Source of the DNA: an uncultured Actinomycetes bacterium
GTDB lineage: Bacteria > Actinomycetota > Thermoleophilia > Gaiellales > Gaiellaceae
Direction: 5' to 3'
DNA length: 64,000 nt
Assembly: GCA_963746895.1 (NCBI GenBank)
Contig: CAVVDI010000012.1
Span: 28,600 to 92,599, forward strand
Part shown: positions 17,497-58,804 of the stretch, in pieces
How the letters are laid out: each line of letters opens with the position of its first letter
Position numbering within the stretch: the first letter of the stretch is position 1
Position numbers and translations under genes: made by a program
Notes under the pieces: model-generated
What the model was told of the DNA's origin: nothing
Seen by the model: only the letters and a program-made list of their open reading frames with translations
Database searches by the model: none

Positions 17497-17521
17497 GCCA
17501 AGTAACACTCTGTTACTTGGC
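17497..17521. repeat. palindromic element copy 1 (GCCAAGTAACA-ctc-TGTTACTTGGC)
   Basis: Perfect 11-bp arms and AT-rich sequence in GC-rich surroundings. It is related to the copies at 39957 and 57765. Confidence 0.85.
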
Positions 17522-17664
17522 TGGCGGGGCTCGGGGCGGCCGCTCGGATGCTCGGTCTTCGTCTTGCGGCGCTTGTGGGCCATGCCCCGATCCTGCTGCG
17601 TGCTCGGCCCGGCTCCCATCCCCGTCGCCGCGGAGCCGGGTTGCGGCTTTCCCCGGCCCTGGGG

Positions 17665-19236
17665 TCAGACGAGGCCGCCGGTGTAGCGCCAGGGGCCCGA
17701 CTGGAACCGGATCCCGCGCTTGCGGCAGAACTCGCGCACCGAGTCGAGCAGGACGCCGCCGCCGCCGTACGCCTGCCGCCCGAGCAGGTCGAGCACCGCC
17801 ACCCCGGCGGGCGGGTCGCCGGCGAGCCCGAGCGTGAGCACGACGGTCTCCCCCTCGCCGGGATCGACGCCGCCGGCCGAGAGCCGCTCGACGAACAGCA
17901 CGCGCCCCGGGCCCTCCGGGCCGGTCAGCTCGACCCGCTCGACGCCGCCGCGGTCGACGTGGTCGGCGTCGACCCCGCGCAGGACGAGCAGCTCGTGCAG
18001 CTCGTGCAGCATGCGCCGGACGAGCGCGACCTGCCTCGGCCGCGTCATCGGCCGGCTGGCCGAACCGGCGACCTTCGCCGGGACGCCGACGACGAGCATC
18101 CCCGCCGGGACGTCCGAGACCACGTACGAGTTCGAGGCGACGATCGCCTCGCGCCCGACGCGCGAGCCGGCGTAGACGACCGCCCCGAGCCCGACCTGGG
18201 CGCGGTCCTCGACGACGATCCCGGCGAAGCGGTTCTCGAAGCCCTCGAGGACGGAGTGACCGATGTTGTGCGTGACGAGCATCGAGCGCATGGTCACGAA
18301 CGTCTCGGACCCGATCAGCACGGGCCGGCTGACGTTGACGAACACCTCGTCGCCGAGAAAGGCGAGGTCGCCGAGCACGAACGTCGCCCAGGGGTCGCGG
18401 TGGCCGCCGCCGGCGATCAGGAGGTTGGCGCCGGCCCAGACGCCGCTGCCGACGTACGCGCGCCGGCAGGCGAGCCGGAGCGAGGGGCCGAAGCGGCTGC
18501 CCGCCCCGATCGCGACCACCTCGGCGCACTCGACGCTGCCGCCGCGCTCGATCCGGACGCCGTCCTCGAGCACGATTCGCGCGGCGATCACGACGGTTCC
18601 CGCACCGAGGAGCACACCCTCGCCGATCCGCGCGCCCGCCTGCCGGTAGGCCTCGCACTTCTGCTCCGAGGACAGCGCGCCGAACGCGTCCGGATCGGCC
18701 CGGAGCGAGGCGAGGAAACCCTCGTCGACGGCACCCTCCCGCTCGTCGAGGCCGAACAGGGCCGGGAGCGTCACCTGCTCGGTCGAGAGCCCGGCGAGCA
18801 CCGGATCGAGCCCGCCCGGACGCTCGCCCGCCGCCGTGCGGATCATGGCCTCGACGTCGGCGGAGGTGACGAATCCCGACTTCTCGAGCTCGCTCAGGTC
18901 GAGGCCGTGGTGCGCCGCGAGCTCGGCGGCGCGGCGCGTGACGTTGCGCTGCGCCGGCCCGCTGGTGTCGGCCGGCTGCTCGACCCGCCGCTCCTCCGCC
19001 GCCGCGAGCTCGCCCTCGTTCTCCGCGACGACGGCGATCGTCGTGCCGAGCTCGACCTCGACTCCCTCGCCGACGAGCTGGACGAGGATGCCGTCGCCGG
19101 GAGCCTCGATCTCGATCGAGGCCTTCGACGTCTCCACGACGCAGAGCGGCCGGCCCTTCCTCACCCGCGCGAGGTCGTCCGCGATCCACTCGGAGAGAAG
19201 TGCCGACTCGCTGTTCGCGTCCTCGCGCGTGAGCAC
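17665..19236 (-). CDS. E2-like lipoyl-carrier / hexapeptide-repeat (LbH) acyltransferase fusion protein
   Basis: Four regions in order. A lipoyl-attachment domain (SEWIADDLARVRKGRPLCVVETSKASIEIEAPGDGILVQL). A peripheral-subunit-binding-like motif (TRRAAELAAHHGLDLSELEKSGFVTSADVEAMI). Long hexapeptide repeats (IGEGVLLGAGTVVIAARIVLEDGVRIERGGSV...VGLGAVVYAGSRVGREAIVASNSYVVSDVPAGMLVVGVPAKV). About 140 aa of unassigned C-terminus. The start is uncertain: GTG 19236, or a CTG a few codons upstream. Confidence 0.8.
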   Translation of the reverse strand: MLTREDANSESALLSEWIADDLARVRKGRPLCVVETSKASIEIEAPGDGILVQLVGEGVEVELGTTIAVVAENEGELAAAEERRVEQPADTSGPAQRNVTRRAAELAAHHGLDLSELEKSGFVTSADVEAMIRTAAGERPGGLDPVLAGLSTEQVTLPALFGLDEREGAVDEGFLASLRADPDAFGALSSEQKCEAYRQAGARIGEGVLLGAGTVVIAARIVLEDGVRIERGGSVECAEVVAIGAGSRFGPSLRLACRRAYVGSGVWAGANLLIAGGGHRDPWATFVLGDLAFLGDEVFVNVSRPVLIGSETFVTMRSMLVTHNIGHSVLEGFENRFAGIVVEDRAQVGLGAVVYAGSRVGREAIVASNSYVVSDVPAGMLVVGVPAKVAGSASRPMTRPRQVALVRRMLHELHELLVLRGVDADHVDRGGVERVELTGPEGPGRVLFVERLSAGGVDPGEGETVVLTLGLAGDPPAGVAVLDLLGRQAYGGGGVLLDSVREFCRKRGIRFQSGPWRYTGGLV

Positions 19237-19250
19237 GATCTCGAGCAGCG

Positions 19251-20297
19251 TCAGCTCCTCGCTCCCGCGAGCGCGGACACCGCCGCCACGACGTCGTCGA
19301 CCCCCGGCAGCGCCTCGTCCTCGAGCGCGCGGGCGGACGGGACGATCCCGTCGCGCGCGGCGACACGGCGCACCGGCCCGCGGAGGTCGTCCCACGCCTC
19401 GGCCTGGACCCGCGCCGCGATCTCGGCGCCGAGGCCCGCGGTGAGCGTGCCCTCCTCGATCGTGATCAGCCTGCCGGTGCGCGCAACCGACTCCAGCACG
19501 GGGTCGAGATCGAGCGGCAGCAGCTGCCCGAGCGCCACGACCTCGGTGAAGATCTCCTCCTCGAGGATGAGCGACGTCGCTGCCTCGAGCGCGATCGGGA
19601 GCATGCCCCCGTAGGTGACGAGCGTCGCCTCCGCACCCGAGAGCCCGTTGCCGGAGAAGGTCAGCGCCGGCCACGGCCCCTCGGTCTCGAGGCAGCGGAA
19701 CTCGTCCACGTGCCCGTTCACCGGCCGCCGCTCGAGCCGTCCGTACATGAGCTTGTTCTCGATGAAGAACACGGGGCGGTCGTCGTCGACCGCGGCGGCC
19801 AGCATCCCGCCGATGTCGTGGCACTCGCTCGGAGCCACGACGACGATCCCGGGCACGCCGAGCAGCAGCTTCTCGAGCGACTGGCTGTGCGTCGGGCCGT
19901 AGCCGCGGCGGCCGCCCATCGGGGTGCGCACGACGAGCGGGACGGTCGCCTGCTCGTCGAACATCTCACGGAACTTGGAGATCCCGTTCACGATCTGGTC
20001 GAAGCCCAGGGTGATGAAGTCGCCGAACATGATCTCGACGATCGGCCGGTAGCCGCGGAGCGCGAACCCGGCAGCCACCCCGAAGATCGAGGCCTCGCTC
20101 ACCGGCGTCGGCAGCACCCGGTCGGGCCACGCGGTGCTCAGCCCGGCGCTGGCCTTGAAGGCGCCGCCGTAGGGGTCGAGCAGGTCCTCGCCGATCAGGT
20201 AGACGTCGTCGCGCCGCTCGAAGATCTCGTGCAGGCCCGCGTTCAGCGCCTGCACGCAGCGTCTGGGAGGCTCGGTCGAGCCGACGCCGCCGCTCAC
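19251..20297 (-). CDS. TPP-dependent 2-oxoacid dehydrogenase E1 component, beta subunit
   Basis: 348 aa. Transketolase pyrimidine-binding and C-terminal pattern (IGEDLLDPYGGAFKASAGL...PVSEASIFGVAAGFALRGYRPIVEIMFGDF...VVRTPMGGRRGYGPTHSQS). GTG overlaps the E1 alpha stop (GTGA). Confidence 0.9.
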   Translation of the reverse strand: MSGGVGSTEPPRRCVQALNAGLHEIFERRDDVYLIGEDLLDPYGGAFKASAGLSTAWPDRVLPTPVSEASIFGVAAGFALRGYRPIVEIMFGDFITLGFDQIVNGISKFREMFDEQATVPLVVRTPMGGRRGYGPTHSQSLEKLLLGVPGIVVVAPSECHDIGGMLAAAVDDDRPVFFIENKLMYGRLERRPVNGHVDEFRCLETEGPWPALTFSGNGLSGAEATLVTYGGMLPIALEAATSLILEEEIFTEVVALGQLLPLDLDPVLESVARTGRLITIEEGTLTAGLGAEIAARVQAEAWDDLRGPVRRVAARDGIVPSARALEDEALPGVDDVVAAVSALAGARS

Positions 20298-21214
20298 GCC
20301 GCGACGCCGCCCGAGGCGACCGGAGCTGCCAGGGCCTCCTCGACGGCCGTCTCGAGCCGCCGCGCGACCTCCTGCTCGAGCTCCCGGCGCGCGTGCCGGT
20401 CGAGATCATCGCCGAGGACGGTGAGCGGGTCGCGTTCGCGGCGCGCCTCGATCTCGGCCGGGTCGCGGAAGTCGTCACCCTTGCTGTGGGGCGCGAAGCG
20501 GTAGGTGTCGAGCACGAGGAAGAAGGGCTTGCCGGTGTTCCGGACGTGGCGGACGGCCCGCTCGGCGGCGTCCCGGATCTCGGTCACGTCGGTCGAGTCG
20601 AGCCGCCCCGTCGCGATCCCGAAGGCGGCCGCGCGCGCCTCGACGTCGCCCGCCAGCTGGAGGCTCGACGGCGTCGACTGCGCGTAGCCGTTGTGCTCGA
20701 CGACCACGAGCAGCGGCAGGTCCCAGAGCGCGCTCAGGTTCAGGCTCTCGTACACGACGCCCTGGCCGAGGGTCCCGTCGCCGATGAAGACGGTCGCGAT
20801 CCCTCCCTCGCCCTTCTCGCGCTGCGCGAGCGCGATCCCGGCGGCGAGCGGCACGGTGCTGCCGAGAACGCCGTTCGAGTAGAAGTTGTCGGCGCAGAGG
20901 TGCTGGCTGCCGCCCTTGCCGCCGCAGACGCCTCCCTCGCGGCCGAGCACCTCCCGCAGCAGCCCGTCGACGTCGCCGGTCAGCGCGAGGTAGTGCCCGT
21001 GACAGCGGTGGTTCGAGACGACGACGTCCCGGTCGGCGTCGAGGCAGGCGACGACGCCGACGGCGTTCGCCTCCTGGCCGATGCAGGTGTGGGTCGTCCC
21101 CGACATCTTCCCGGCGGAGAAGAGGTGGAGCAGGGTCTCCTCGAAGCGCCGGATCATGAACATCGCGGCGTAGAAGCCGTGAACGGCCGTGTGGACGGTG
21201 TGCGCTTCCAGCAT
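20294..21214 (-). CDS. TPP-dependent 2-oxoacid dehydrogenase E1 component, alpha subunit
   Basis: TPP-binding motif FIGDGTLGQGVVYESLNLSALWDLPLLVVVEHNGYAQSTP. The likely start is ATG 21214 (MLEAHTVH) with GGGGAGA upstream. The tracked ORF begins 14 codons earlier. Confidence 0.9.
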   Translation of the reverse strand: MLEAHTVHTAVHGFYAAMFMIRRFEETLLHLFSAGKMSGTTHTCIGQEANAVGVVACLDADRDVVVSNHRCHGHYLALTGDVDGLLREVLGREGGVCGGKGGSQHLCADNFYSNGVLGSTVPLAAGIALAQREKGEGGIATVFIGDGTLGQGVVYESLNLSALWDLPLLVVVEHNGYAQSTPSSLQLAGDVEARAAAFGIATGRLDSTDVTEIRDAAERAVRHVRNTGKPFFLVLDTYRFAPHSKGDDFRDPAEIEARRERDPLTVLGDDLDRHARRELEQEVARRLETAVEEALAAPVASGGVAA

Positions 21215-21308
21215 CGGTTCTCCCCAACTCCCGCCTACGCATGCGTGCGCGCGCATGCGCAGCGGGATGCGATCGAGCGAATCCTAATCGAGGCTGCGGC
21301 CGCCGCGG

Positions 21309-22505
21309 CTACAGATAGCCGAGATCGGCCAGGCGGGACTCCACCGCGGCGGCGTCGCCGGCGCTCAGCTCCGTCTGCTCGATCGTCTCGAGCTCCGCGT
21401 ACAGCCGCTCGCGCAGGTCGGGAGGCGCCTCGTCGGGAACGCTCCTCCGCTCGCGCGGGTCGAGGTCGAGCCGGTAGGCCTCCTCCGTCCCGGACTCGAC
21501 GTGGACGAGGAGCTTCCAGGGCGGCTGCCGCAGCGCGAGCTGGGAGACGCGCCCGCCGTCGGTGCCGACGATCCACACGGGACGGTCGCCCCGCTCCGTC
21601 CCGTCGAGGAGCGGCAGCACGGAGGAGCCGTCGACGCCCTCGAGCGGCGCTCCGCCGAGATCGAGCAGCGTCGGCGTCAGGTCGACGAGGCTCACCTGCT
21701 CCGCGACGACGGCGCCCGGCTCGATCCGCCCCGGCGCGGAGAGGAGCAGCGGCACCTCGACGATCTCCTCGAAGAGCGTGGCGCCGTGCATGTGGTAGGT
21801 GCCCTTGACGGCCTGCTTGTCGGGGAAGCGCTCGCCCCAGGACTCGCCGTGGTCGCTGAGGAACGCGATCGCCGTCTCCTCGCGCAGGCCGAGCGCGTCG
21901 AGCTCGCCGAGGAAGCCGGCGAGGAGCTGCTCGGAGGAGCGCTCGACCGCCTGCGCGTACGACTCGCGGAGGGCATCGAGCGCGGCGGCGCTGTCGGACT
22001 GGATCCCGCTCATGATCGCCTGCTTCGCCGCGAGCCACTCCCTGCGCTCCGCGTGCTGCACGTCGTAGGGCATGTGCGTCGCCCAGCTGTGGAACCAGAG
22101 GAGGAACGGCCGGTCGCGGTGCGCGCGCAGCCACTCGACGGCGCCGTCGAGCGTCTCGCTCGTGCCGGCGACGTTCGCGTCGGGGAAGCCCTTGAACAGG
22201 TAGCTCTCGTCGAAGACGAAGCTGCCGGTCGCGTAGCCGTGGGCGGCCGCGACGGAGAAGAGCGTCGGCAGCGCCGGGTCGAGCTGCGCGTCCCAGTGCA
22301 GGAAGCCGTGGTGGTGCGGGTAGAGGCCGGTGATCATCGAGGTGGTCGACGGGCACGTCCACGGCGCGGCCGCGACGGCCTGGTCGAAGCGGGCGCCGCT
22401 CGCGGCGAGCCCGTCGATCGTCGGCGTGCGGACGCGCCGTGCGCCGTAGCAGCCGACGTGGTCGGTGCGGAGAGCATCCGAGACGTAGACGATCAGGTTC
22501 CTCAT
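21309..22505 (-). CDS. sulfatase-fold (alkaline phosphatase superfamily) enzyme lacking the Cys-x-Pro-x-Arg sulfatase signature
   Basis: Real start is ATG 22505 (MRNLIVYVSDALRTDHVGCYG), overlapping the upstream stop (ATGA). The sulfatase N-terminal metal/nucleophile region reads AAPWTCPSTTSMITGLYP, and FLSDHGESWGE is also present. No signal peptide. Confidence 0.8.
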   Translation of the reverse strand: MRNLIVYVSDALRTDHVGCYGARRVRTPTIDGLAASGARFDQAVAAAPWTCPSTTSMITGLYPHHHGFLHWDAQLDPALPTLFSVAAAHGYATGSFVFDESYLFKGFPDANVAGTSETLDGAVEWLRAHRDRPFLLWFHSWATHMPYDVQHAERREWLAAKQAIMSGIQSDSAAALDALRESYAQAVERSSEQLLAGFLGELDALGLREETAIAFLSDHGESWGERFPDKQAVKGTYHMHGATLFEEIVEVPLLLSAPGRIEPGAVVAEQVSLVDLTPTLLDLGGAPLEGVDGSSVLPLLDGTERGDRPVWIVGTDGGRVSQLALRQPPWKLLVHVESGTEEAYRLDLDPRERRSVPDEAPPDLRERLYAELETIEQTELSAGDAAAVESRLADLGYL

Positions 22506-23887: not shown

Positions 23888-23928
23888 CACCCTGCGTGCG
23901 GCGGCCCCCTCCCCCACGGGAGCCAACT

Positions 23929-36699: not shown

Positions 36700-37482
36700 C
36701 TACACGCCGAAGAGCAGCGCCTGAGCGCCGAGCATCACCGCGAACGAGATGCCGCCGCCGAGCGCGAGCGCGCCCTTCGGCGCGTCCTCGAGCGCCTCCG
36801 GCAGCAGCTCCGACCAGACCATCCAGACCATCGCGCCCGCGGCGAAGCCGAGCCCGACGGGGAGCACCGGGCGGAACGCCTCGACGAAGAGGAAGGCGAG
36901 CGGCGCGATCAGCGGCTGCGGCAGGCTCGAGAAGACGCTCCACCAGGCGGCGGAACGGACGCTCGCGCCGCGCGGGACGAGCACCAGGCTGATCGCGAGA
37001 CCCTCCGGGATGTTGTGGACGGCGATCGCGATCGTGATCAGGAGCCCGAGCCGCTCGCCGCCGCCGTACGAGACGCCGACGCCGACGCCCTCGCTCGCCG
37101 AGTGCACTGTCATCACCGCGACGATCACGAGCGCCTTCATCGCATCGGCGCCGCCGAGCCGGCCGAGCACGAGCCCGTCCCGGTCCCCGATCAGCCGGCG
37201 GAAGCCGACGATGAACAGACCGCCGGCCACGGCGCCGAGCACCACCCGCCACGGCCCGAGCCCGACGCCCTGCCAGATCAGGCCGACGCTCGCGGCGAGC
37301 ATGAAGCCCGCCGCGACCGCGTTCGAGACGCCGAGCCAACGCCGCCCCATCCCGTTCGGGAGGAACAGGAACGGCAGCGCACCGAGCCCGGTCGCGACGG
37401 CGGTGACGGCAGCCGCGATCGTGACGGTCCAGACGTTGACCGGCATGGGGCGAAGCGTCCACCGGGTGCGCTGCAGCTGCAT
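36700..37482 (-). CDS. ZIP-family divalent metal (zinc) transporter
   Basis: 260 aa. Signature [17 protein letters not shown] and 8 TM segments. Confidence 0.9.
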
Positions 37483-37580
37483 CCGCGCCCGCCCGGATCA
37501 CCGGTCCTACAGGCGGCGGCCGCTCACGGCCGGACGAGACCGACTCGTCTGCGAGACGACCGCCTGCGGCGAAACGGTTA

Positions 37581-37627
37581 CACTTCGGGCGCCCGGCATC
37601 CCCTACGGAGCTGGAGCGCCCGAAGTG
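37581..37627 (+). promoter_or_regulatory. 12-bp perfect stem sequestering the start codon of the first pan-operon gene
   Basis: CACTTCGGGCGC (37581-37592) pairs with GCGCCCGAAGTG (37616-37627). The 23-nt loop contains GGAG, and the 3' arm contains the GTG start (37625-37627). Confidence 0.45.
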
Positions 37628-38290
37628 CTCAACCGCGTTCACCTCATCGGCTCGGGCCGCGTCGGCTCGGCTGTCACCGCCCGATTGCAGGAGCGGGGCA
37701 TCGCCGTGGGCCCGGACGACCCGCAGCTCGTGCTCCTCTGCGTCCCCGACGGTGCGATCGCGGAGGTCGCCCGGACGGTTGCGCCCGGCCCGTGGGTCGC
37801 GCACGTGAGCGGGGCGACGCCGCTCGCGGCGCTCGACCCGCACGAGCGCCGCTTCTCCGTGCACCCCCTGCAGACGTTCTCGCGAGCGCGAGGGCCCGAG
37901 CAGCTGGACGGCGCCTGGGCGGCGATCACGGCCGAGAGCGAGGATGCGCTCGCGACCGCCCGCGGCGTCGCGGAGACGCTCGGACTCCGCCCCTTCGAGC
38001 TCGCCGACGAGAAGCGGACGCTCTACCACGCGGGGGCGGTCTTCGCGTCGAACTACCTCGTCACGCTCGAGCGCGCGGCGTCCGGCTCGCCAGCGGCCGC
38101 CGGCGCACCGCCCGAGGCGCTCGTGCCGCTGATCATGGGCACCGTCGAGACCGGCTTCGAGCTGACCGGCCCGATCTCCCGGGGCGACTGGGCGACGGTG
38201 GAGGCGCACAGGGCCGCGATCCACGCCGCGCATCCCGAGCTCGAGCACCTGTACGAGACGCTCGCCGAGGCGACGGTGATGCTCGCGTGA
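37625..38290 (+). CDS. Rossmann-like / DUF2520 domain protein (conserved upstream partner of panC)
   Basis: [17 protein letters not shown] Rossmann start, then ...[16 protein letters not shown]...GPISRGD. Its stop overlaps the panC GTG (GTGA). Confidence 0.7.
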
Positions 38291-39085
38291 AGGTCGTGCG
38301 CACGATCGCCGAGCTCCGCGAGGCGCGCGCCGCCGCCACGGGCGAGGTCGGGCTCGTGCCGACGATGGGAGCCCTCCACGCCGGGCACCTGGCGCTGCTC
38401 GAGGCGGCGCGCGCCGAGAACGACGCGGTCGTCATGTCGCTCTTCGTCAACCCTGCGCAGTTCGACGAGGCCTCCGATCTGGCGGCGTATCCCCGCGACG
38501 AGGCGCGCGACCTGGCACTCGCCGAGGAGGCCGGCGTCGCGGTCGTCTTCGCGCCGGCCGTCGACGAGCTGTACCCGCAGGGCTTCCAGACCTGGGTGGA
38601 CGTGGAGGACGCCTCGCGCGGGCTGGAGGGCGACGCGAGGCCCGGCCACTTCCGCGGCGTGGCGACCGTCTGCTTGAAGCTCTTCACCCTCGTCCGCCCC
38701 TCGCGCGCCTACTTCGGCCAGAAGGACGCGCAGCAGTCCGCAGTCGTGCGCACGCTCGTCCGCGACCTGGCGCTGCCGCTCACGATCCGCGTCGTCGCCA
38801 CGGTGCGCGACCCGGACGGGCTCGCGCTCTCGTCGCGCAACAGCCTGCTCGCGGCCGCGGAGCGCGAGCGGGCGCTCGTCGCTCCCCCGCGCCCTCGCCG
38901 CCGGCGCCGCGGCGCACCGTGCGGGAGGCGATCCCGTCGCCGCGGCCCGCGCCTCCCTCAACGGGCTCACGCCCGACTACGTCTCCCTGCTCGACCTCGA
39001 CGGCGCGCTCGTGCTCGCCGCCGCCGCCCGCGTCGGCTCGACGCGGCTGCTCGACAACGTCCTCCTGGAAGGAGAGCTCGAATGA
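38287..39085 (+). CDS. panC: pantoate--beta-alanine ligase PanC (1-nt insertion near 38880-38887)
   Basis: [46 protein letters not shown] and LALSSRN, then a frame change. The C-terminus [66 protein letters not shown] is in the +1 frame. Length is 799 nt. Confidence 0.9.
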
Positions 39086-39966
39086 GCGAGAAGCCCTCGC
39101 GCTACGCGTCCTGGACCGCCGGCAAGCTGCCGCTTCCGGAGCTGGCCGAGATCAAGCGGCGCGGCGGGAAGATCGTGATGGTCACCGCCTACGACGCCCC
39201 GAGCGGCCGGCTCGCCGACGCGGCCGGCGTCGACCTCGTCCTCGTCGGCGACTCGGCTGGGATGGTCGTGCACGGCCGGGAGTCGACGGTGCCGGTCGCG
39301 ATCGACGAGATCGTCTACATGACGCAGTGGGTGACGCGCGGGGCGAAGCGGTCGCTCGTCGTCGCCGACATGCCGTTCGGCACGTACGAGGAGTCGGACG
39401 AGCAGGCCGTGCGGAACGCGGTGCGCCTCGTCAAGGAGGGCGGCGCCGACGCGGTCAAGCTCGAGCGCGGCGGGACGACGGTCGCGCGGGCGCGGGCGAT
39501 CTCCGCTGCGGGCATCCCCGTGATGGGCCACGTGGGCCTGACGCCGCAGACCGCGACCGTCCTCGGCGGCTTCAAGGCGCAGGGGCGATCCGCGGAGCGG
39601 GCGCACGAGCTGGTCGAGGACGCGCTCGCGCTGCAGGAGGCGGGCTGCTTCGCGCTCGTCCTCGAGGCGGTGCCGCCGGTCGTGGCGCACGCCGCGACCC
39701 GCGCGCTCGCGATCCCGACGATCGGGATCGGCGCCGGAGCCGAGACGGACGGCCAGGTGCTCGTGTGGCACGACATGCTCGGCTACTACGAGGGCCACGC
39801 ACCGCGGTTCGTCAAGCGCTACGCCGACCTCGGCGCCACGATCGTCGAGGCGCTCGGCCGCTACGCCGAGGAGGTGCGCAGCGGCGCCTTCCCGGAGGAG
39901 CGGCACACGTACGCGATGCCGGAGGAGGAGCGGGCCGCCTTCGAGGCCGCCATCACTCCCAAGTGA
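39082..39966 (+). CDS. panB: 3-methyl-2-oxobutanoate hydroxymethyltransferase PanB
   Basis: 294 aa. Motifs [35 protein letters not shown] and [11 protein letters not shown] overlaps the panC stop (ATGA). Confidence 0.95.
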
Positions 39967-39983
39967 CACAGTGTTACTTGGGA
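39957..39983. repeat. palindromic element copy 2 (TCCCAAGTGACAC-a-GTGTTACTTGGGA), bidirectional terminator candidate
   Basis: 13-bp arms with one mismatch. It contains the panB stop (TGA 39964-39966) and the kbl stop (TAA, complement of 39974-39976). Confidence 0.85.
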
Positions 39984-41171
39984 GGTAGGAGCCCGGCCTC
40001 GCGGCCGACCTCGACGAACACCTCGAGCGCGCGCTCCAGGTGCACAGGCTCGAGCGCCGCGGACATCTGCACCCGGATGCGGGCCGTCCCCTCGGGGACG
40101 ACCGGGTACCCGAAGCCGGTCACGAAGACTCCGCGCTCGAGCAGCCGCTGCGAGAACTCGATCGCGCGCGCCGTCTCGCCGACGATGATCGGGACGATGG
40201 CGCCCTCGCCGTCGAGCGGCGCGAAGCCCGCATCGCGGAGCGCACCCCGGAACCAGCGCGTGTTCTCGCGCAGCCTCGCGACCAGGTCCGGGCGAGTGCG
40301 CAGGACGTGGACGGCGGCCCGAGCGCTGCAGGCGACCGTCGGCGGCAAGGCGTTCGAGAACAGCTGCGGGCGCGAGCGCTGCGCGAGCAGGTCGCAGACC
40401 TCCTGCGACGCGGCGACGTAGCCTCCGGCCGCACCGCCGAGCGCCTTGCCGAGCGTGCCCGTCACGACGTGCACCTCGCCGAGGACGCCGAAGTGCTCCG
40501 CGACGCCGCGGCCGGTCTTGCCGACGACGCCGACGCCGTGCGAGTCGTCGACGAGGACGGTCGCGGCGTGCGCGCGGGCGAGCTCGAGGATGTCCGGCAG
40601 CCGTGCGAGGTCGCCCTCCATCGAGAAGACGCCGTCGGTGAGGATCAGGGCGCGGAGGCCCTTGTCCACGGACCGCAGCGCCTCGCGCAGCTCGCCCATG
40701 TCCGAGTGCCGGTACACGAGCTTCCCGGCGGGCTTCGCGAGCCGGACGCCGTCGATGATCGAGGCGTGGTTCAGCTCGTCGGAGACGATCACCGTCTCGG
40801 CGTCGCCGAGCGTCGGGATCACCGCCTCGTTCGCGTTCCAGCAGGAGACGTAGGTGAGCGCCGCCTCGGTCGCCGAGAGCTCGGCGAGGTCGACGCTCGA
40901 GCTCGAGATGCGGCGCGAACGTGCCGCAGATGAAGCGGACGGACGCCGTGCCGGCGCCGTACCGGCGCAGCCCGTCGATGCCGGCCGCGACGACGTCCGG
41001 ATGATCGGCGAGGCCGAGGTAGTTGTTCGAGGAGAGGACGATCACCTCGCCGCGGCCGGCCATCCGCACGACCGGCCCCTGCGGCGACTCGAGCGTGTTG
41101 AAGCGCTTGTAGGTGCCCGTCTCGCGGAGCGCGTCCAGCTCACCGCGGATCTTCTCGTCCAGCTCGGTCAC
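39974..41171 (-). CDS. kbl: 2-amino-3-ketobutyrate CoA ligase (glycine C-acetyltransferase) Kbl (1-nt insertion near 40893-40896)
   Basis: The N-terminal third (VTELDEKIRGELDALRETGTYKRF...SSNNYLGLADHP...ASVRFICGTFAPHLELE) is in one frame. The rest (LAELSATEAALTYVSCWNANEAV...DELNHASIIDG...VDDSHGVGVVGKTGRG...GTLGKALGG) is in the +1 frame. Length is 1198 nt. GTG overlaps the tdh stop. Confidence 0.9.
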
Positions 41172-49184: not shown

Positions 49185-49926
49185 GTGAACCGGACGACCC
49201 CGGCCGCGCCGTTCGTGCTCTCGCTGTCGCTGCGCGAGTCGCCGTTCGCGACGGACTACGCCTCGGAGCTGCCGGCGCTGCGCGGCCTCGGCCGGCTCGA
49301 GCTCGACCCTCGCGTGACCTTCCTCGTCGGCGAGAACGGGAGCGGGAAGTCCACGCTCGTCGAGGCGCTCGCCGTCGCGGCGAAGCTCAACCCCGAGGGG
49401 GGCGGCAGGCTGCTGCGCTTCGCCACGCGCGCCTCGCACTCCCGGCTGCACGAGCGGCTCGTCGTCGAGCGGTCGGCGCTGCCGCCGCTGAACGCGTTCT
49501 TCCTCCGGGCGGAGAGCGTGTTCAACCTCGCGACCGCGATCGAGGAGGGCGGCTACCTCGGCGTGCGGGAGGACGTCTACGAGCGGCCGCTGCACGAGCA
49601 GTCGCACGGCGAGTCGTTCCTCGACATCGCGGTCAACCGCTTCGGGCCGCGCGGGCTCTACCTGCTCGACGAGCCGGAGGCGGCCCTCTCGGTGTCCGGG
49701 CAGCTGGCGCTGATGGCGCGCATGCACGAGCTCGCCGAGACAGCACTCGCAGTTCGTCGTCGCGACGCACTCCCCGATCCTGCTGGGCTTCCCGGGCGCG
49801 ACGATCTACGAGCTCGGCGAGGACGGCGTGCGCCCGATCGAGTGGAACGAGGCGCCGCAGGTCGAGCTGACGCGCTCGTTCCTCGAGGACCCGCAGCGCT
49901 TCCTGCGCCACCTCCTCGCCGAGTGA
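49185..49926 (+). CDS. AAA/ABC-like ATPase (COG3910-type), 1-nt insertion near 49740
   Basis: Walker [16 protein letters not shown]/signature region HEQSHGESF and Walker B LYLLDEPEAALS. The conserved SQFVVATHSPILLGFPGATIYELGEDG...RHLLAE* then follows in the +1 frame. Length is 742 nt. Confidence 0.75.
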
Positions 49927-49944
49927 CGCCCTTTCACACGGCGG

Positions 49945-50177
<233 letters not shown>

Positions 50178-50178
<1 letters not shown>

Positions 50179-52184: not shown

Positions 52185-52213
52185 GGGGACCAGGGTAACG
52201 CCCGGGTCGGGGC

Positions 52214-52781
52214 TTACGGCCCGCCGCCGGAGCCGCTCAGCCCGAGCTCGGACGCGTAGGCGCGGCGGTAGATGCCCTTCAGCCGCTCGACCCGCTCGAC
52301 GTAGGCGCTCGTCTCCGGGAACTGCACGCCCTCGTGCGCGGCGAGCCAGCGGTCGACGTTCGACTGGCCGGCGTTGTAGGCCGCGAGCGCGGTGCGTTCG
52401 TCGCCGTACTTGTCGAGCAGGTGGCGGAGGTACCAGGCGCCGTAGCGGACGTTGATCTCGGGGTCGGTCAGGTCGGAGAGCACGAAGCCCTTGCCGCCGG
52501 TGTACTGCGCGATCCCCTCCGCCGTCTGCGGCGTCAGCTGCATCAGCCCGACCGCGCCGGCGCTCGAGCGCGCGCTCGCGTCGAACTTGCTCTCCTGCTC
52601 GATCACCGCGGCGAGCAGGGCCGGGTTGAGCCGGTAGTGCGCGGCGTGGCCGCGCACGATCGAGGCGTAGCGGAGCGGGTACCAGATGCGCGCCCACCAG
52701 GGCGGCTCGGTGCGCTGGAGGTAGACGAGCAGCGCCGCCGGCGACGGCGACGACGGCGACCAGCAAGACGAGTCGCCTCAC
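52214..52781 (-). CDS. membrane-anchored lytic transglycosylase (SLT domain), 1-nt insertion in the TM segment
   Basis: SLT motifs are present: [23 protein letters not shown] and AYNAG. GTG 52781 (overlapping the coaE stop, GTGA) gives [14 protein letters not shown]. The continuation (A)[30 protein letters not shown]... is in the +1 frame. Length is 568 nt. Confidence 0.75.
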
Positions 52782-53363
52782 GAGAACGACGAGAGCTCCT
52801 CCACGACCGAGGCGACGAACGCGTCGAGCTGCTCGAGCGAGCCGTCGTTGACGAAGGCGAAGTCGGCGCGGCGGAGCTTCTCCTCGTCGGGGACGAGGCG
52901 CGCCTCCCGCTCGGCGAAGCCGCTCCGCCGTTCCCTGCGCAGCTCGGCCGGGGCGGTCACGACGACGACGCGGTCGAAGCGCGCCTCGCCGCCCGTCTCG
53001 TAGAGGAGCGGGATCTCGACGACGGCGACCGCGGGCGGCTCGGCGCGTGCCCGCAGCGCGCGGAGCCAGCCGTCGACGGCGGCGCGGACGCGCGGGTGCA
53101 GCTCCGCCTCCAGCCAGGCGAGCTCGCCGCGGTCGGCGAAGACGATCCGCCCGACCGCCGCCCGGTCGACCTCGCCGTCCACGATGACACGCTGCCCCCA
53201 GCGCTCGCGCAGCAGTCGCCCGGAGCCCCTCGTCCTCGCGGTAGAGCCGGTGGACGATCTCGTCGCTCGACTCGACCGCAGCGCCGTGTCGCGCGAACGC
53301 GCTCAGCGCCTCGCTCTTGCCCGCCGCGATGCCGCCGGTGACCGCGACCGCGAGCGGCCGCAT
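52778..53363 (-). CDS. coaE: dephospho-CoA kinase CoaE (1-nt insertion near 53216)
   Basis: ATG 53363: [23 protein letters not shown]...[15 protein letters not shown], then the +1 frame [41 protein letters not shown]... The extra base fits GCG[A]CTG. Length is 586 nt. Confidence 0.85.
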
Positions 53364-53367
53364 CGCG

Positions 53368-54775
53368 CTAGGCCGGCTCGACCTCGTCCGGGCCACCGAC
53401 GGCGTCGTCGTCGGCGGCGACATCCTCGGGCTCGTCGGGGGTGGCGGCCTTCGGCTCCTGCTGCCGCGGCCTCGGCCGCCGCGACGGCCTGCGCCTCGGC
53501 GAACGCCTCGGCGACCGCGCCCTCGGCGGGCGGAGCGGAGGCGACGAGCGGCGACTCGTCCTCGGAGTCGGCGGCGGCTGCGGCCGGCTCGTCGGAGAAG
53601 ACGTCCTCGGAGAGATCGAGCGCGGGCGGCGGGGCGTCGTCGCCGGGCTTCGGCTGCACCGGCATCCCCTCCTCGACGCGCTTGAGCGAGAGCGAGAGGC
53701 GTCGCCGCTCGGCGTCGACCTCGAGGATGCGCACGTTCACCTGGTCGCCCTGCGAGACGATCTCGCGCGGGTTCTCGACGTGGTGCTGCGCGAGCTCGGA
53801 GATGTGGACGAGGCCCTCGACGCCCGGGAGGATCTCGACGAACGCGCCGAAGGTGACCACCTTCGTCACCGCGCCGCGGACGACGTCGCCCTCCTGGTAG
53901 CTGTCGAGCACCTGCTGCCACGGATCGGTCTGCGTCTGCTTGAGGCCGAGCGAGATCCGCTGGCGGTCGCGGTCGATGTCGAGCACCTTGACGTTGACCG
54001 TCTGGCCGATCTCGAGCACCTCGGACGGGTGGTTGACGTGGCTCCACGACAGCTCCGAGATGTGGATCAGCCCGTCCATCCCGTCGAGGTCGACGAAGGC
54101 GCCGAAGTCGACGATGTTCGAGATCGTGCCCTCGACGACATCGCCCGGGTTGAGCCGGTCGAGGATCTTCTGCCGCTGCTCCTTGCGCTCCTCCTCGAGC
54201 ACGGCGCGGCGGGAGAGCACGACGTTGTTGCGCGAGCGGTTGAGCTCGATCACCTTGCACTGGAGCTCCTGCGCCATGAACTCGTCGAGGTCCTGCACGC
54301 GGCGGATGTCGACCAGCGACGCGGGCAGGAAGCCGCGGACGCCGAGGTCGAGGATCAGACCGCCCTTGACGACCTCGATCACGCGGCCGGTGACCGGCTC
54401 GCCGTGCTCGTGCGCGCTCTCGATCGCCTTCCAGGCGATCTCGAAGCGGGCGCGCTTCTTCGAGAGGATGAGCCGGCCGTCGGCGTCCTCCTTGGTCATC
54501 ACGAGCGCAGCGATCTCGTCGCCGAGGGAGACCTCGTCGGCCGGGTTCACCGAGCGCCGGATCGAGAGCTCGGAGACGGGGATGACGCCCTCCGACTTGT
54601 AGCCGATGTCGACGAGCACCTCGTCCTTGTCCACGCGGACGACGGTGCCGTTGACGACCTGTCCTTCTTCGATGGTCGGGAAGGTCGACTCGTAGTCCGG
54701 GATCAGCTCGCCGTCCGGACCGGTCGTCCAGACGCCTTCCTCGAGCTTGGGTTCGTTGATCGTGTCGTTGGCCAT
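53368..54775 (-). CDS. rpsA: 30S ribosomal protein S1 (1-nt insertion near 53450 in the acidic tail)
   Basis: Four S1 repeats ([78 protein letters not shown]). After ...AAAAGAE the GC3-rich frame is +1 ([29 protein letters not shown] at 53368-53370). The tracked frame instead gives an Arg-rich tail overlapping coaE. Length is 1408 nt. Confidence 0.9.
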
Positions 54776-54855
54776 AGGGCGGGTCAGTATAGCCCCACGT
54801 GTTGAGACGTCTGACGATGCGGTTGGTTGGCCTGCCGCATGGTTACGCTGGACGC

Positions 54856-55284
54856 ATGGAGGAGCGTTATCCCGTCGGAGAGACCGATTCCGCGGCCGTC
54901 GCCGTGGTGCGCCACGAGCGGCGCGACGCCGGCTACCCGCAGTGGACGGCCACGCTCGGCCTGCGCGGAGGCGAGGCGACGGTCAGCGTTCCGGGCCACT
55001 ATCCCGCCGTCCTCGCCGAGCGGATCAGGCAGGCGAGCGCGCGCTTCGTGCCCGGCTCGCGGCTGGCGCGGGACGAGTATCTCGACCTGACGGCGCTCGC
55101 GCGCGGCGACGAGGAGACGCTCGCGATCTCCTCGAGCGCGCGGTCGCCGGTACGCGTGACGATCGAGGTGCCCCGCGGCGAGCTGGAAGGTCTCGCTGCG
55201 CTGCTCGACGCCGCGCAGGAGCTGATCGAGACGCTCCGGCAGGGGCTCGGGCTCGTCCCGGACAGCCTGCCCGAGGCGCTGTGA
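54856..55284 (+). CDS. hypothetical protein
   Basis: 142 aa from ATG 54856 (MEERYPVGETDSAAVAVV...). GC3-rich codons. No family recognised. Confidence 0.45.
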   Translation: MEERYPVGETDSAAVAVVRHERRDAGYPQWTATLGLRGGEATVSVPGHYPAVLAERIRQASARFVPGSRLARDEYLDLTALARGDEETLAISSSARSPVRVTIEVPRGELEGLAALLDAAQELIETLRQGLGLVPDSLPEAL

Positions 55285-55351
55285 GCGTCGGCTCGACGGA
55301 GCTCTCCGGGGAGTGGAGGCGCCGGCTCGGCCGCCGCCGGGAGCGGGTCTA

Positions 55352-56167
55352 GTGGCGCTGCGCGACTACGGCGCCGCGGGCGCTCGGGTCGCGCGGCGGG
55401 CGGTGCGGCGGCCGCGCCTGGGCCGCGAGGAGCGGGTCGTCTTCGTCGTCGGCTGCCTGCGTTCGGGGACGACGTTCCTGGGCGGCGCGCTCGGCTCGCA
55501 GCGGGGCTTCGTCGACCTCGGCGAGGTGACCCCCTGGAAGGCGGCCCTGCCGGCCCTGTACGAGCGCCGCGAGCGAGGCGGCGAGCGCGAGCTGCGGCGG
55601 ATCCTCGAGCGGGTTCGCCTGCTCGGGCTCGCGCCGGGGCTGCGCGGCGTCGAGCAGACGCCGGAGACGGCGCACCTGCTTGCGGCCGCGCTGGCGGCGT
55701 ACCCGCGCGGGCTGGCCGTCCACGCCCTGCGCGACGGGCGCGACGTGGTCTGCTCGGTGCTCGAGCGCGGCTGGCTCAGCCGCACGCGAGCCGGAGCCGA
55801 CGACGCGGGGCTCGCGTACGGGCCGCACGCGCGCTTCTGGGTCGAGCCGGAGCGGCGCGACCAGTTCGCGGAGGCGAGCGACGCGCGGCGGGCGGCGTGG
55901 GCGTGGCGGCGCTACGTGGAGGCGGCCCGCGCGGCGGCGCCCGGGCGGACGTTCGAGCTGCGCTACGAGCGGCTGGCGAGCGATCCGGACGGCGCCGCCG
56001 ACGAGCTCGCGGCGTTTCTCGGTTCGGAGCCCGCGCCGTTGCGTCTCGCCTTCGAGCGGTTCACGGACGCGAGCATCGGCCGCTGGCGGCGCGACCTCGA
56101 CGCGGCGCAGCTCGCGGACGTCGAGGCCGAGGCCGGTCCGCTCCTCGCCGAGCTCGGCTACGCCTAG
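55352..56167 (+). CDS. sulfotransferase-family protein
   Basis: 5'-PSB-like loop VVGCLRSGTTFLG, RDGRDVVCS, and a C-terminal RWRRDL. The start is uncertain: GTG 55352, or the tracked 55313. Confidence 0.6.
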   Translation: MALRDYGAAGARVARRAVRRPRLGREERVVFVVGCLRSGTTFLGGALGSQRGFVDLGEVTPWKAALPALYERRERGGERELRRILERVRLLGLAPGLRGVEQTPETAHLLAAALAAYPRGLAVHALRDGRDVVCSVLERGWLSRTRAGADDAGLAYGPHARFWVEPERRDQFAEASDARRAAWAWRRYVEAARAAAPGRTFELRYERLASDPDGAADELAAFLGSEPAPLRLAFERFTDASIGRWRRDLDAAQLADVEAEAGPLLAELGYA

Positions 56168-56209
56168 CCGCGCGCTCCCGGCCGCCACGACCGCGGCGCG
56201 GCACCGCCG

Positions 56210-58804
56210 TCAGGATTTCGCGTCGCCCCAGCTGTCGCCGGCGCCGACGTCGACGGCGAGCGGCGGGTCGAGCGGGTAGGCCCGGCACATCTCCTCGCGC
56301 ACGAGCTCCTTGACGGTCGACAGCTCGGCGTCGGGCGCCTCGACGAGCAGCTCGTCGTGCACCTGGAGGACGAGCCTGGCGCCCCTCCCCTCCTCGCGCA
56401 GGCGGCGGTGGATCGCGACCATCGCCACCTTGATCACGTCGGCGTTGGAGCCCTGCATGACGAAGTTGACCGCCACGCGCTCGCCGAGGCCGCGCGTCTG
56501 CCTGTTCCGCGCGCGCAGCTCCGGCACCGGCCGCCGCCGTCCCAGCAGGCTGGTCGCGTAGCCGTCCGCCTCCGCCCGCTCGACGGTGCGCTCGATGAAG
56601 TCCTGCACCATCGGGAAGCGCGCGAGGTAGGCGTCGATGTACTCCTGCGCCTGCTCGCGCGGGATCTCGAGGTTCTCCGAGAGCCCGTACGCCGAGATCC
56701 CGTAGACGATCCCGAAGTTGATCATCTTCGCGACGCTCCGCTGGCCGGACGTGAGCTTCGCCGGGTCGACCCCGAGCACCTCGGCCGCCGTCGCCGTGTG
56801 GATGTCCTCGCCGCGTGCGAACGCCTCCCGCAGCTTCGGCTCGCCGGAGACGTGGGCGAGGATCCGCAGCTCGATCTGCGAGTAGTCGGCCGAGATCAAC
56901 CGGTGCCCCGGCTCGGCCACGAACGCGGAGCGGATCTCGCGGCCGATCTCGGTGCGGATCGGGATCGACTGCAGGTTCGGGTTCGAGGTCGAGAGCCGGC
57001 CGGTCGCGGCGACGGTCTGGTTGAAGTGGGTGTGCAGCCGTCCGTCCTCGCCGAGCATCTCCGGCAGCGGCACGAGGTACGTGTTGAGGAGCTTCGAGAG
57101 CTCGCGCCACTCCTCCACGACGGGCACGATCTCGTGGTCGGCGCGGATCGAGCGCAGCACCTTCGTGTCGGTCGAGTAGCCGGTCTTGCCCTTGCGCCCC
57201 GGGGTGAGCTCGAGCTTCTCGAACAGGATCCGGGCCAGCTGCTGCGGCGAGCCGAGCACGAAGTCCTCGCCCGCCAGCTCGTAGGCACGCGCCTCCAGCT
57301 CCTCGACCCGATCGGCGAGCCGCGCGGTGATCTCCCCCATCCGGTACGTGTCGATCTTGACGCCGGCCGCCTCCATCGCGGCGAGCACGCCGACGAGCGG
57401 CATCTCGACGTCGCGGTAGAGCCGCTCCGCCCCGCGCTCGCGGACGCGCTCGAGCAGCGGGTCGCGCAGCCGCAGCGTCGCGGCCGCATGGCGCACGAGC
57501 CGCGCCGTCTCCTCCTCGGCCTCGGGCTCGGGCTGCACCTCGACCGCGTACTCGGCTTCGAGGTCGTCGAGCTCGTAGGAGGCGCGTCCGGGCTCGATCA
57601 GATAGGCGAGGATCATCGTGTCGTCGGCCGCGTCGACGCCGACCGCCTTCGCGTCGTGCGCGACGAAGTTGCCGTGCAGCCGCTCCGGCCGCGGCGAGAC
57701 GACGACCTCGTCGCCGTGCGCGATCGCGATCCGCCCGTCGTCGGCCGCAATCCCGACCGGCTCCGAGCCAAGTGACACTGTGTCACTTGGCTCCTCGCGC
57801 CAGGTGACGGCCGTGCCTGCGGTGATCCGCTCGCGCGCCGGCACCGCCTCGTCGAGCTCGTCCACACGGCCGAGCAGCGCGCGGAACTCGAAGCGGCGGA
57901 ACATCTCGCGCAGCTGCGAGCGGTCGGGCGGCGCGAGCACGAGCTCGGCGGGGTCGCACTCGAGCTCGAGGTCGCGACGCATCGTCGCCAGCTGCTTCGA
58001 CGCGCGCGCCTGCCCGGCGAACTCGGTCAGGTTCCGCCGCCGCGCCGGCGACTGCTCCTCGACGTGCTCGAGCACCCCCTCGAGCGAGCCGTACTGCGCG
58101 ATCAGCTGCCCGGCGGTCTTGTCGCCGATGCCGGGGACGCCCGGAATGTTGTCCGAGGTGTCGCCCTTGAGGCCGATGAAGTCGGGGATCCGCTCCGGGC
58201 CGATCCCGTACCGCGCCTCGACCCGCTCGGGCGTGTAGACCTGGACGTCGCTGACGCCGCGCGGCGTCATCATCAGGGAGACGTTCCCCGAGACGAGCTG
58301 GAAGGCATCGCGGTCGGTCGAGACGACGCACGTCCTGATCCCGGCCGCGTCGGCCAGGGTCGCGAGCGTCGCGATCACGTCGTCCGCCTCCCAGCCCTCG
58401 AACTCGAGGTTGCGGTAGCCGAACGCCTCGACGATCGGGCGGAAGTGCGGGAACTGCTCCCGCAGCAGGTCGGCCATCGGCCGCCGGCCCTCCTTGTAGA
58501 CCACGTCGGCCGCCTCGGCCTGCGCCGCGCGGTGCACCGGGCGGGTGTCCCACGCGACCGCGACCCCCTTCGGCCGGTAGTCCGAGAGGAGCTTGAAGAG
58601 CATGTTGGTGAAGCCGAGCAGCGCGCCCGTCGGGAATCCCTCGGTCGTCGCGAGCTCCTCCGGCAGCGCGAAGAACGCCCGGTAGGCGAGGTTGTTGCCG
58701 TCGACGAGGAACAGCTCGCTGTCGCGCGCGGGCGCGTCGCTCAGGTCGAGCTCCGCGCCGGTGAGCGTCTTCGGAGACATCGCCCCGAGTCTATTGCGGC
58801 GCAC
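56210..58804 (-). CDS. polA: DNA polymerase I
   Basis: 864 aa, intact. It has a 5'-nuclease domain, a 3'-5' exonuclease-like domain and polymerase motifs (DYSQIELR, RRxAKxxNFGxxYG, QVHDEL). Confidence 0.97.
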   Translation of the reverse strand: MRRNRLGAMSPKTLTGAELDLSDAPARDSELFLVDGNNLAYRAFFALPEELATTEGFPTGALLGFTNMLFKLLSDYRPKGVAVAWDTRPVHRAAQAEAADVVYKEGRRPMADLLREQFPHFRPIVEAFGYRNLEFEGWEADDVIATLATLADAAGIRTCVVSTDRDAFQLVSGNVSLMMTPRGVSDVQVYTPERVEARYGIGPERIPDFIGLKGDTSDNIPGVPGIGDKTAGQLIAQYGSLEGVLEHVEEQSPARRRNLTEFAGQARASKQLATMRRDLELECDPAELVLAPPDRSQLREMFRRFEFRALLGRVDELDEAVPARERITAGTAVTWREEPSDTVSLGSEPVGIAADDGRIAIAHGDEVVVSPRPERLHGNFVAHDAKAVGVDAADDTMILAYLIEPGRASYELDDLEAEYAVEVQPEPEAEEETARLVRHAAATLRLRDPLLERVRERGAERLYRDVEMPLVGVLAAMEAAGVKIDTYRMGEITARLADRVEELEARAYELAGEDFVLGSPQQLARILFEKLELTPGRKGKTGYSTDTKVLRSIRADHEIVPVVEEWRELSKLLNTYLVPLPEMLGEDGRLHTHFNQTVAATGRLSTSNPNLQSIPIRTEIGREIRSAFVAEPGHRLISADYSQIELRILAHVSGEPKLREAFARGEDIHTATAAEVLGVDPAKLTSGQRSVAKMINFGIVYGISAYGLSENLEIPREQAQEYIDAYLARFPMVQDFIERTVERAEADGYATSLLGRRRPVPELRARNRQTRGLGERVAVNFVMQGSNADVIKVAMVAIHRRLREEGRGARLVLQVHDELLVEAPDAELSTVKELVREEMCRAYPLDPPLAVDVGAGDSWGDAKS
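57765..57793. repeat. palindromic element copy 3 (GAGCCAAGTGACAC-t-GTGTCACTTGGCTC) inside polA
   Basis: Perfect 14-bp arms. GGCTCC is present on both sides (57759-57764 and 57789-57794). It is translated in frame as PSDTVSLGS. Confidence 0.9.

Follow-up and report, generated by a model that had tools for sequence, protein, structure and literature searches.

In Escherichia coli, repetitive extragenic palindromic (REP) hairpins located in intercistronic gaps stabilise the upstream mRNA, and REP sequences with their RAYT proteins (the REPtrons of proteobacteria) have the closest known layout to the element described here, a 23-bp palindrome dispersed in genomes of the order Gaiellales. In the Tus-Ter, RTP-Ter, ParB-parS, MatP-matS and RefZ-RBM systems, about 10-25 specific sites per chromosome are served by one small DNA-binding protein; such chromosome-organising sites may lie within genes and are retained at orthologous positions, and a site can lie beside the protein's own gene (Ter by tus and rtp, parS by parB). 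Rickettsia palindromic elements (RPEs), of about 100-150 bp, have no known cognate protein. The present analysis concerns three copies of the Gaiellales palindrome in a 64,000-nucleotide stretch from an uncultured member of the Gaiellaceae (assembly GCA_963746895.1, contig CAVVDI010000012.1, positions 28,600 to 92,599; hereafter the window), together with their relatives in other genomes. The palindrome is the putative recognition site of a lineage-specific, five-helix protein of about 95 amino acids (aa), and its dispersed sites may act as boundary or terminator-like elements, a reading to which we give roughly even chances. To our knowledge, no counterpart has been described for its site logic, in which the element occupies the stops of one or both convergent genes, intercistronic gaps and in-frame linkers.

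The three window copies share the pattern CCAAGTRACAC-N-STGTYACTTGG and were recovered at the coordinates given by an earlier reading of the window's letters alone (the sequence-only reading), with the total lengths of 25, 27 and 29 bp that it had written: copy 1 (core 17498-17520, 25 bp with flanks at 17497-17521; CCAAGTAACACTCTGTTACTTGG), copy 2 (core 39959-39981, 27 bp with flanks at 39957-39983; CCAAGTGACACAGTGTTACTTGG) and copy 3 (core 57768-57790, perfect over 29 bp at 57765-57793; CCAAGTGACACTGTGTCACTTGG). In all three, the core was fixed at 23 bp, with arms of 11 bp and a single central base; the loop is therefore not variable, unlike the spacer of one to five bases allowed by the sequence-only reading. 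Complementarity extended 1-3 bases past the core in each copy, the bases involved differing from copy to copy. The cores had a GC content of 43-52%, compared with about 73% for the window, in line with their earlier description as low-GC elements in a GC-rich genome. No match to the 23-bp pattern appeared in 100 dinucleotide-preserving shuffles against the three observed, a result that was unchanged with three mismatches permitted, and the half-site AAGTRACA was confined to the three palindromes (6 matches in 64 kb, compared with 0.23 expected). A further stretch at 49919-49941 (CCGAGTGACGCCCTTTCACACGG), 4 bp past the stop of the minus-strand gene 49945-50178, differed from the 23-mer at six positions and could be either the remnant of a copy or a coincidental match.

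The exact 23-mer was present in at least 109 genome stretches, all from metagenome-assembled genomes (MAGs) of Gaiellales, Gaiellaceae or Thermoleophilia, in a scan that took one genome per species and whose counts are lower bounds. With mismatches permitted, these 109 loci contained 143 sites, the best-conserved part being the inner 15 bases (GTRACAS-N-STGTYAC). Exact copies numbered at least 13 in one MAG and at least 11 in another. Copies were spaced 50-300 kb apart in long contigs, with no tight clustering along the chromosome, and the density in 1.2 Mb of fetched loci was about one per 100-300 kb; the 405 kb surrounding the polA orthologues held almost no palindrome besides the polA copy itself. 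The number of copies per genome is estimated at 10-30, an estimate based on lower-bound scans and on individual contigs and loci, and three copies in 64 kb is denser than usual. Viral contigs contained neither a copy of the palindrome nor a relative of the small protein, and no relevant description was found in literature joining Gaiella and palindromes. The sequence-only reading had argued for a dispersed family rather than a conserved local structure and had named a lack of further copies, together with identical sequence at the orthologous sites of distant relatives, as what would speak against it; further copies do occur in Gaiellales genomes, and in practice the 23-mer is a clean marker of the lineage.

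Loci with two copies about 380 bp apart enclosed an open reading frame (ORF) of about 95 aa. This small protein was encoded beside the palindrome in 17 of the 109 palindrome-selected loci. As an unbiased test, loci were then retrieved by the protein instead of the palindrome; all four independent ones (L110, L111, L112 and its duplicates L113 and L114, and L115) were bracketed by two copies, one located 50-78 bp (as a rule about 60-70 bp) upstream of the called start and the other on or just after the stop. Four more distant homologues (L196, L197, L199 and L200) each had a palindrome upstream; the downstream palindrome lay at or just after the stop in L196 and L199 and was degenerate or missing in L197, while the L200 contig ended 48 nt beyond the stop of the small gene. 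In three genomes the gene lay in a conserved lipid-metabolism neighbourhood, whereas its surroundings in the fourth were those of purine catabolism, and no conserved partner gene adjoined it in the four protein-fetched loci. Its family comprised 403 close matches, unnamed or annotated as 'hypothetical' and without Pfam domains, and at 50% identity fell into 383 clusters, drawn from 1.84 billion representatives; every cluster consisted of small stand-alone proteins. Members were 94-100 aa long, basic and arginine-rich, with no match in Pfam, NCBIfam, PHROG or PADLOC, and the AlphaFold2 model was all-helical, with five helices and a pLDDT of 88.

Several observations concern the annotation and the upstream region of this gene. 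JGI names attached to family members (P0002, P0007, P0011 and others) included several 'proteasome lid subunit RPN8/RPN11' and one 'AraC-like DNA-binding protein', which look spurious for a 94-aa helical protein without a Pfam match. Overlong ORF calls in the family (P0275, P0343 and P0384) extended through the palindromes, which thus cause mis-annotation when ORF calls run on through them. Two conserved elements separated the upstream palindrome from the start of the small gene in nine loci (L012, L037, L053, L097, L110, L111, L115, L199 and L200): G(A/C)GTCGGCAC, about 8-20 nt past the palindrome, and a -10-like (C/G)ACACT, about 10-14 nt before the start. The proximity of the latter to the start suggests a leaderless or short-leader transcript, and the distance of about 22-23 nt between the two elements is too long for a standard -35/-10 pair.

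The palindromes were found to vary together with the protein they bracket. L110 had CCAAGTAACAA-C-TTGTTACTTGG on both sides of the gene (the C11A/G13T variant), and in L111 the centre GAC was common to both bracketing copies. Among the distant homologues, L199 had CCTTGCAACAA-C-TTGTTGCAAGG twice and L200 had CTTAGTGATGA-C-TCATCACTAAG, both with the 11-1-11 architecture and at a distance from the start similar to that of typical loci. Nothing else links the small protein to the palindrome as strongly as this co-variation, and with distant homologues flanked by different 11-1-11 palindromes, a site for a dimeric DNA-binding protein, which the sequence-only reading had kept as its alternative, is now the better-supported explanation. 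A by-eye comparison of the Q/E residue in the RPSY(Q/E)R helix with the variant at the site centre gave no clean correlation. Positions 11 and 13 of the palindrome were symmetric and co-varying (C..G, G..C or A..T). As these two positions cannot pair across a 1-nt loop, their co-variation points to the two-fold symmetry of the duplex, as would be read by a dimeric protein, or to a copying process, and not to hairpin energetics alone.

Concerning placement relative to genes, 116 sites were classified: 36 convergent, 51 tandem, 15 inside genes, 9 at locus edges and 5 divergent. In a test independent of the gene caller, a gene end fell inside the site or at most 150 nt upstream for 109 of 143 sites. 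The palindrome's own TRA (CCAAG-TRA-CAC) served as the stop codon for 47 of 137 incoming gene ends, and 42 of these stops were TAA, a rare stop codon in high-GC genomes. Six sites, including window copy 2, provided the stop for both convergent genes, and convergent gaps often held a second, more degenerate copy, giving one per gene end. In several tandem cases, an intergenic gap of 30-60 bp consisted almost wholly of the palindrome. The 15 coding copies used two open frames only (11 PSNTVLLG and 4 QVTQCYL), and none was in the frame that contains the stop. Apart from the small-protein gene, no gene family recurred beside the palindrome loci.

Some sites occurred in pairs or beside other repeats. 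Pairs in six independent loci (L011, L026/L057, L032, L046, L005 and L080) were 54-56 bp apart from centre to centre, with spacers of a constant 31-33 bp but unrelated sequence, and the remaining pairs were 70-102 bp apart; a spacing kept constant while the spacer sequence is not conserved might stem from bridging by a protein or from local duplication. In the MAG JBOHAM, a G+C-rich palindrome (about AACGAAAGGCGCGCGCCTTTCGTT) lay directly 5' of the 23-mer at four loci (L015 4418, L020 3575, L064 3746 and L067 640), which suggests an additional repeated hairpin family adjoining it. Another short palindromic repeat (GAACCGAACCTGGTTCGCG ... CGAACCAGGTTCGCG), unrelated to the 23-mer, was found at 372-415 of L200, right after the stop of the upstream gene.

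From the family with its distribution and contexts, the bracketed gene and the protein-palindrome co-variation, we infer the following way of working. The small protein would bind the palindrome as a symmetric dimer, and as its gene is always bracketed by two copies, it would mark, insulate or regulate that gene. The further 10 to 30 or so copies per genome would be placed where bound protein or hairpin spares promoters, namely on or after stops in both orientations (one per convergent gene, or shared), in short tandem gaps and in tolerant linkers. Bound sites could then be bidirectional boundary elements that stop or pause RNA polymerase at gene ends, with the transcript hairpin helping to form or protect the 3' end. 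The convergent bias, the stops supplied by the palindrome's own TRA, the double-stop sites and the single copy per gene end fit such a boundary role, and the predicted stability of the RNA hairpins is in keeping with it; the basic, all-helical build of the protein and the DNA-binding domains among its weak structural neighbours favour recognition of the palindrome by it. New copies would arise through a copying mechanism that writes over a segment of about the copy's own length and not by simple insertion. In its fullest form, this amounts to a two-part Gaiellales system in which a 95-aa orphan family of putative DNA-binding proteins and a co-evolving 11-1-11 palindrome constitute a protein-dependent bidirectional gene-end module, with a stop codon on both strands, transcription blocked or ended from either side, and replacement-type copying that reaches in frame into DNA polymerase I and SelA; we put this fuller version forward tentatively, as less likely than not.

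Several observations weigh against recognition by the small protein and a boundary role. Foldseek searches of the small protein against PDB and BFVD returned nothing significant (best E about 0.8-0.9), so even the term 'helix-turn-helix' (HTH) is presumptive; the weak, non-significant structural neighbours were HTH DNA-binding domains of TnsB, MuA, IstA, SETMAR, terminases and Orc1, and a PDB profile search yielded designed helical repeats only, plus GapR at a non-significant E of 0.24-0.5. The small protein is not encoded in the 64-kb window, and its presence in this genome is assumed. About 45 bp separate the end of the upstream palindrome from the putative -10 box (CACACT), not the classic placement of a repressor site. 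Beyond the small gene, polA and some shared sites, positions were not conserved order-wide, unlike those of a stable regulon, and it is hard to see what purpose a roadblock midway through polA or selA would serve. Finally, bases flanking the core were complementary more often than expected (59 of 105 sites at ±1, compared with 31 ± 4.6; 46 of 105 at ±2, compared with 28 ± 4.3), a pattern that suits a hairpin, a cruciform or a copying process better than plain recognition by a protein.

In the window itself, where genes were called by codon-position GC plus Pfam, the copies lay in three different contexts. Copy 1 lay in frame, as PSNRVLLG, inside a very basic micro-ORF of about 45-46 aa (17443-17583, minus strand; 46 aa in the translation MAHKRRKTKTEHPSGRPEPRQPSNRVLLGKKPAVPRAPRLPGHGMR, with ends given as MAHKRRKTKTEHPSGRP...PRAPRLPGHGMR), located between an E2-like gene (17665-19236, minus) and an SLT transglycosylase gene (16690-17415, minus). 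Outside the palindrome, 36 of its 38 codons had G or C at the third position (counted by hand), and the codon phase of high GC ran on through 17460-17640. Two homologues, P0392 (87% identity) and P0393 (74%), contained a palindrome at the matching place and had the same gene order (E2-like gene, micro-ORF, SLT, H+-PPase); the counterpart of copy 1 in the syntenic locus of P0393 (L198) was CCAAGTAACAGACTGTTACAAGC. At copy 2, the stop codons of both convergent genes fell within the palindrome: the TGA of a panB-type ketopantoate hydroxymethyltransferase (39964-39966, plus; translation ending in AAITPK) in the left arm and the TAA (39976-39974) of a class I/II aminotransferase gene (39974-40822, minus; ending in LLPPK) in the right arm. 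The orthologous site of this copy was found in L043. Copy 3 lay in frame in polA (DNA polymerase I; 56210-58804, minus; Pfam 5_3_exonuc_N, 5_3_exonuc and DNA_pol_A), where it encoded EPSDTVSLGS at about residues 338-347, in the linker separating the 5'-3' exonuclease and polymerase domains. Among the three contexts proposed by the sequence-only reading, the convergent gene ends (copy 2) and the essential polA gene (copy 3) therefore held, and copy 1 turned out to be not simply intergenic but part of a conserved 46-aa ORF.

Two side observations concern these genes. The frame at 37015-39966 (plus) is open from a pantoate-ligase (panC-like) segment through the panB domain, and Pfam Pantoate_ligase and Pantoate_transf were both found on the single translation; panC and panB may here be fused, or be separate genes that share a frame. 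Many Gaiellales PolA entries (P0147, P0163, P0168 and others) were fragments of 250-420 aa, even on contigs of 200 kb to 1.3 Mb, and several had frameshifted stretches in the alignment; errors in long-read assembly, and not gene splitting, are the probable cause.

The comparison of orthologous loci, drawn for polA partly from a metagenome scan, revealed both shared and changing positions. Many positions were common to related genomes, including copy 2 (in L043), copy 1 (in L198) and the polA site. At the polA linker, after WRE, the palindrome or a decayed form (e.g. ELSNSLLQG, EASNNLLQA, EPSCKLQLG) was present in about 38 of 80 orthologues, and others had unrelated linkers, such as PRLDSIAG and GELSGSGG. 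A second polA copy in L157 encoded PSNTVLLG in place of PERLHG, and a loop of SelA had two copies in L026 and L057 and one in L052. The DUF6285 copy was present in L112 and L113 and absent from L110 and L115, with 19 bp replacing 16 bp for a net gain of one codon. In these cases, each gain took the place of a segment about as long as the new copy (+1 to +3 codons), in many instances one already flanked by CC(N) and GG(N), with no clean insertion. Target-site duplications of 3 and 4 bp were not present above chance (0 and 1 of 116, compared with 2.1 and 0.9 expected), and no larger shared element surrounded the copies in the compared loci.

Such presence/absence at DUF6285, polA and SelA sites, which agrees with the mobility expected by the sequence-only reading, is also what a REP-like or miniature inverted-repeat transposable element (MITE)-like selfish palindrome would produce. 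In that case, an enzyme acting in trans would spread a mobile or copy-prone palindrome, the small protein being its end-binding factor or the small gene its master copy, and purifying selection would leave copies at gene ends, where they supply an in-frame stop, and in tolerant linkers, without any host function. The restriction of coding copies to two open frames, the strong bias to gene 3' ends, the second copies arising 54-100 bp from a first, the bracketing of a gene by two copies (as RAYT genes are by REPs) and the resemblance of the weak structural neighbours to transposase end-binding domains all suit this explanation. We nevertheless consider it unlikely, since the bracketed ORF lacks a catalytic domain and its family consists throughout of small stand-alone proteins (383 clusters); there is no 3-4 bp target duplication, and new copies swap 16 bp for 19 bp without clean insertion; the density of about one per 100-300 kb is low; viral contigs hold no copies; and the 23-mer is kept order-wide, with many positions orthologous between genomes. 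No REP-type (Y1) transposase was found between the bracketing copies, the search covering that interval only and not the rest of the genome, and the consensus has no GTAG or GTGG tetranucleotide head, which in REPs goes with an imperfect stem of 20-40 nt. The REP/MITE-like mobile palindrome of the sequence-only reading was thus borne out in its dispersal, its presence/absence and the gene bracketed by two copies, but not in its protein, head or target duplication, nor, it seems, in its estimated copy number, nor in view of the order-wide conservation with shared positions; of the RAYT/TnpA(REP)-type or other cognate gene that it anticipated, a bracketed gene exists, but it is not a RAYT. A MITE in the strict sense, with terminal inverted repeats, a target-site duplication, a length of at least 50 bp and a related autonomous IS, can be set aside, as the element totals 23 bp and lacks both a target duplication and a larger shared element.

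The predicted RNA hairpins were stable (-20 to -31 kcal/mol, z scores of -2.3 to -6.1), and this is the starting point of an explanation at the RNA level, in which a stem-loop in the transcript acts as an I-shaped terminator or as a barrier to exonucleases, so that mRNA 3' ends are formed or protected, and the small protein, if involved at all, is an RNA-hairpin binder. The sites on or just past stop codons and in short intercistronic gaps are well placed for this, the non-conserved complementary flank bases lengthen the stem, and the asymmetric centre in the sense strand favoured GAG over CUC (11 vs 3). Covariation at the orthologous polA site points in the same direction: among 29 sequences it exceeded all 500 shuffles, with changes on both sides in 26 cases, compared with 13.7 ± 3.6, and the inner seven pairs were 94-100% paired while the outer four decayed. 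Part of this signal is confounded: in the polA reading frame each third codon position is paired with another third position, and two synonymous changes towards GC pass for compensation. Synonymous confounding does not explain CCAAGTTGCAA-A-TTGCAACTTGG (L121 and L127) and CTTAGTAACAG-T-CTGTTACTAAG (L191), as their compensatory changes alter amino acids. Against an RNA element, mixed purine/pyrimidine pairs in the sense strand were A.C rather than G.U (7 vs 4), giving no support for an RNA stem, and positions 11 and 13 co-vary although unpairable in the hairpin. Moreover, a structural hairpin would leave the order-wide sequence identity and the co-variation with the protein unexplained, and essential transcripts would be cut short at the internal copies of polA and selA. 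Rfam covariance models matched no family at the palindromes; above the gathering score, the window contained solely a cobalamin riboswitch (RF00174, 93.6 bits, 2003-2155, minus) and a tRNA gene (RF00005, 61 bits, 62396-62479, plus). No T tract followed the palindrome (T fraction downstream of 0.17), which also counts against this explanation, and on balance we regard it as improbable. A canonical intrinsic terminator was rejected on the missing T tract, the AT-rich stem and a terminator scan that gave no hits around window copy 2, in agreement with the sequence-only reading, which had doubted an ordinary terminator.

Could the palindrome be the operator of another regulator, with the small gene as its most tightly controlled target and not the binder? 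The small gene always carries sites, as a core regulon member would, and the link of the small protein to DNA is indirect. However, site variants follow the divergence of the small protein itself, most sites lie at 3' ends or in coding sequence and not at promoters, and no second conserved neighbour gene was seen; this seems very unlikely. A promoter operator with an ordinary regulon, likewise doubted by the sequence-only reading, was rejected on the 36 convergent contexts against 5 divergent ones, the 15 coding copies and the non-recurring neighbour genes, the only promoter-proximal case being the palindrome upstream of the small-protein gene. An origin in phages or plasmids was dismissed, as viral contigs held neither the palindrome nor a relative of the protein and PHROG and PADLOC gave no match.

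If the small protein does bind the palindrome, a novel family of sequence-specific DNA-binding proteins would be known together with its defined 23-bp target, and this in soil bacteria that are widespread but have hardly been cultured. Protein-bound boundaries would bear on how high-GC actinobacteria end and insulate transcription units without canonical terminators, on how short palindromes are copied to new places, including coding sequence, without a recognisable transposase, and on the existence of dedicated boundary proteins in bacteria. Were the palindrome no more than a low-copy selfish element, it would still be a REP-like system with a non-RAYT cognate protein.

Compared with described systems, the Gaiellales palindrome shares with REPs its short, dispersed and mostly extragenic copies, single or paired, at 3' ends and between convergent genes, and with REP/RAYT a cognate gene flanked by two copies (RAYT being single-copy); in intercistronic gaps its hairpins could likewise stabilise the upstream mRNA. 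It differs from REPs in having no GTAG/GTGG head, an estimated 10-30 copies per genome instead of hundreds, a sequence conserved order-wide, in-frame coding copies and a supply of stop codons, while the bracketed protein, unlike RAYT, is all-helical, of about 95 aa, and has no Y1/HUH (IS200/IS605-type) domain. With the Ter, parS, matS and RBM sets, it has in common the estimated number of sites, their tolerance inside genes, orthologous positions and a site by the protein's own gene, and the inner core GTGAC..GTCAC is superficially like matS. There is no relationship in sequence or family to these sets (Pfam, NCBIfam, the PDB profile search and Foldseek returned no ParB, MatP, Tus or RTP), and the Gaiellales sites show no regional clustering in long contigs and a strong preference for stop codons; as perfect palindromes, they also could not be polar in the manner of Ter. 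The in-frame copies at tolerant surface or linker positions (polA, SelA, DUF6285 and the micro-ORF), with presence/absence between orthologues, recall RPEs, although the Gaiellales element is only 23 bp and takes the place of a segment of about its own length (+1 to +3 codons) instead of adding a long insert. From intrinsic terminators, it is set apart by an AT-rich stem in a 73% GC genome, the missing U tract and a sequence conserved beyond structure; with them, including bidirectional ones, it shares a stable stem-loop right after the stop, in which one symmetric element can serve both convergent genes.

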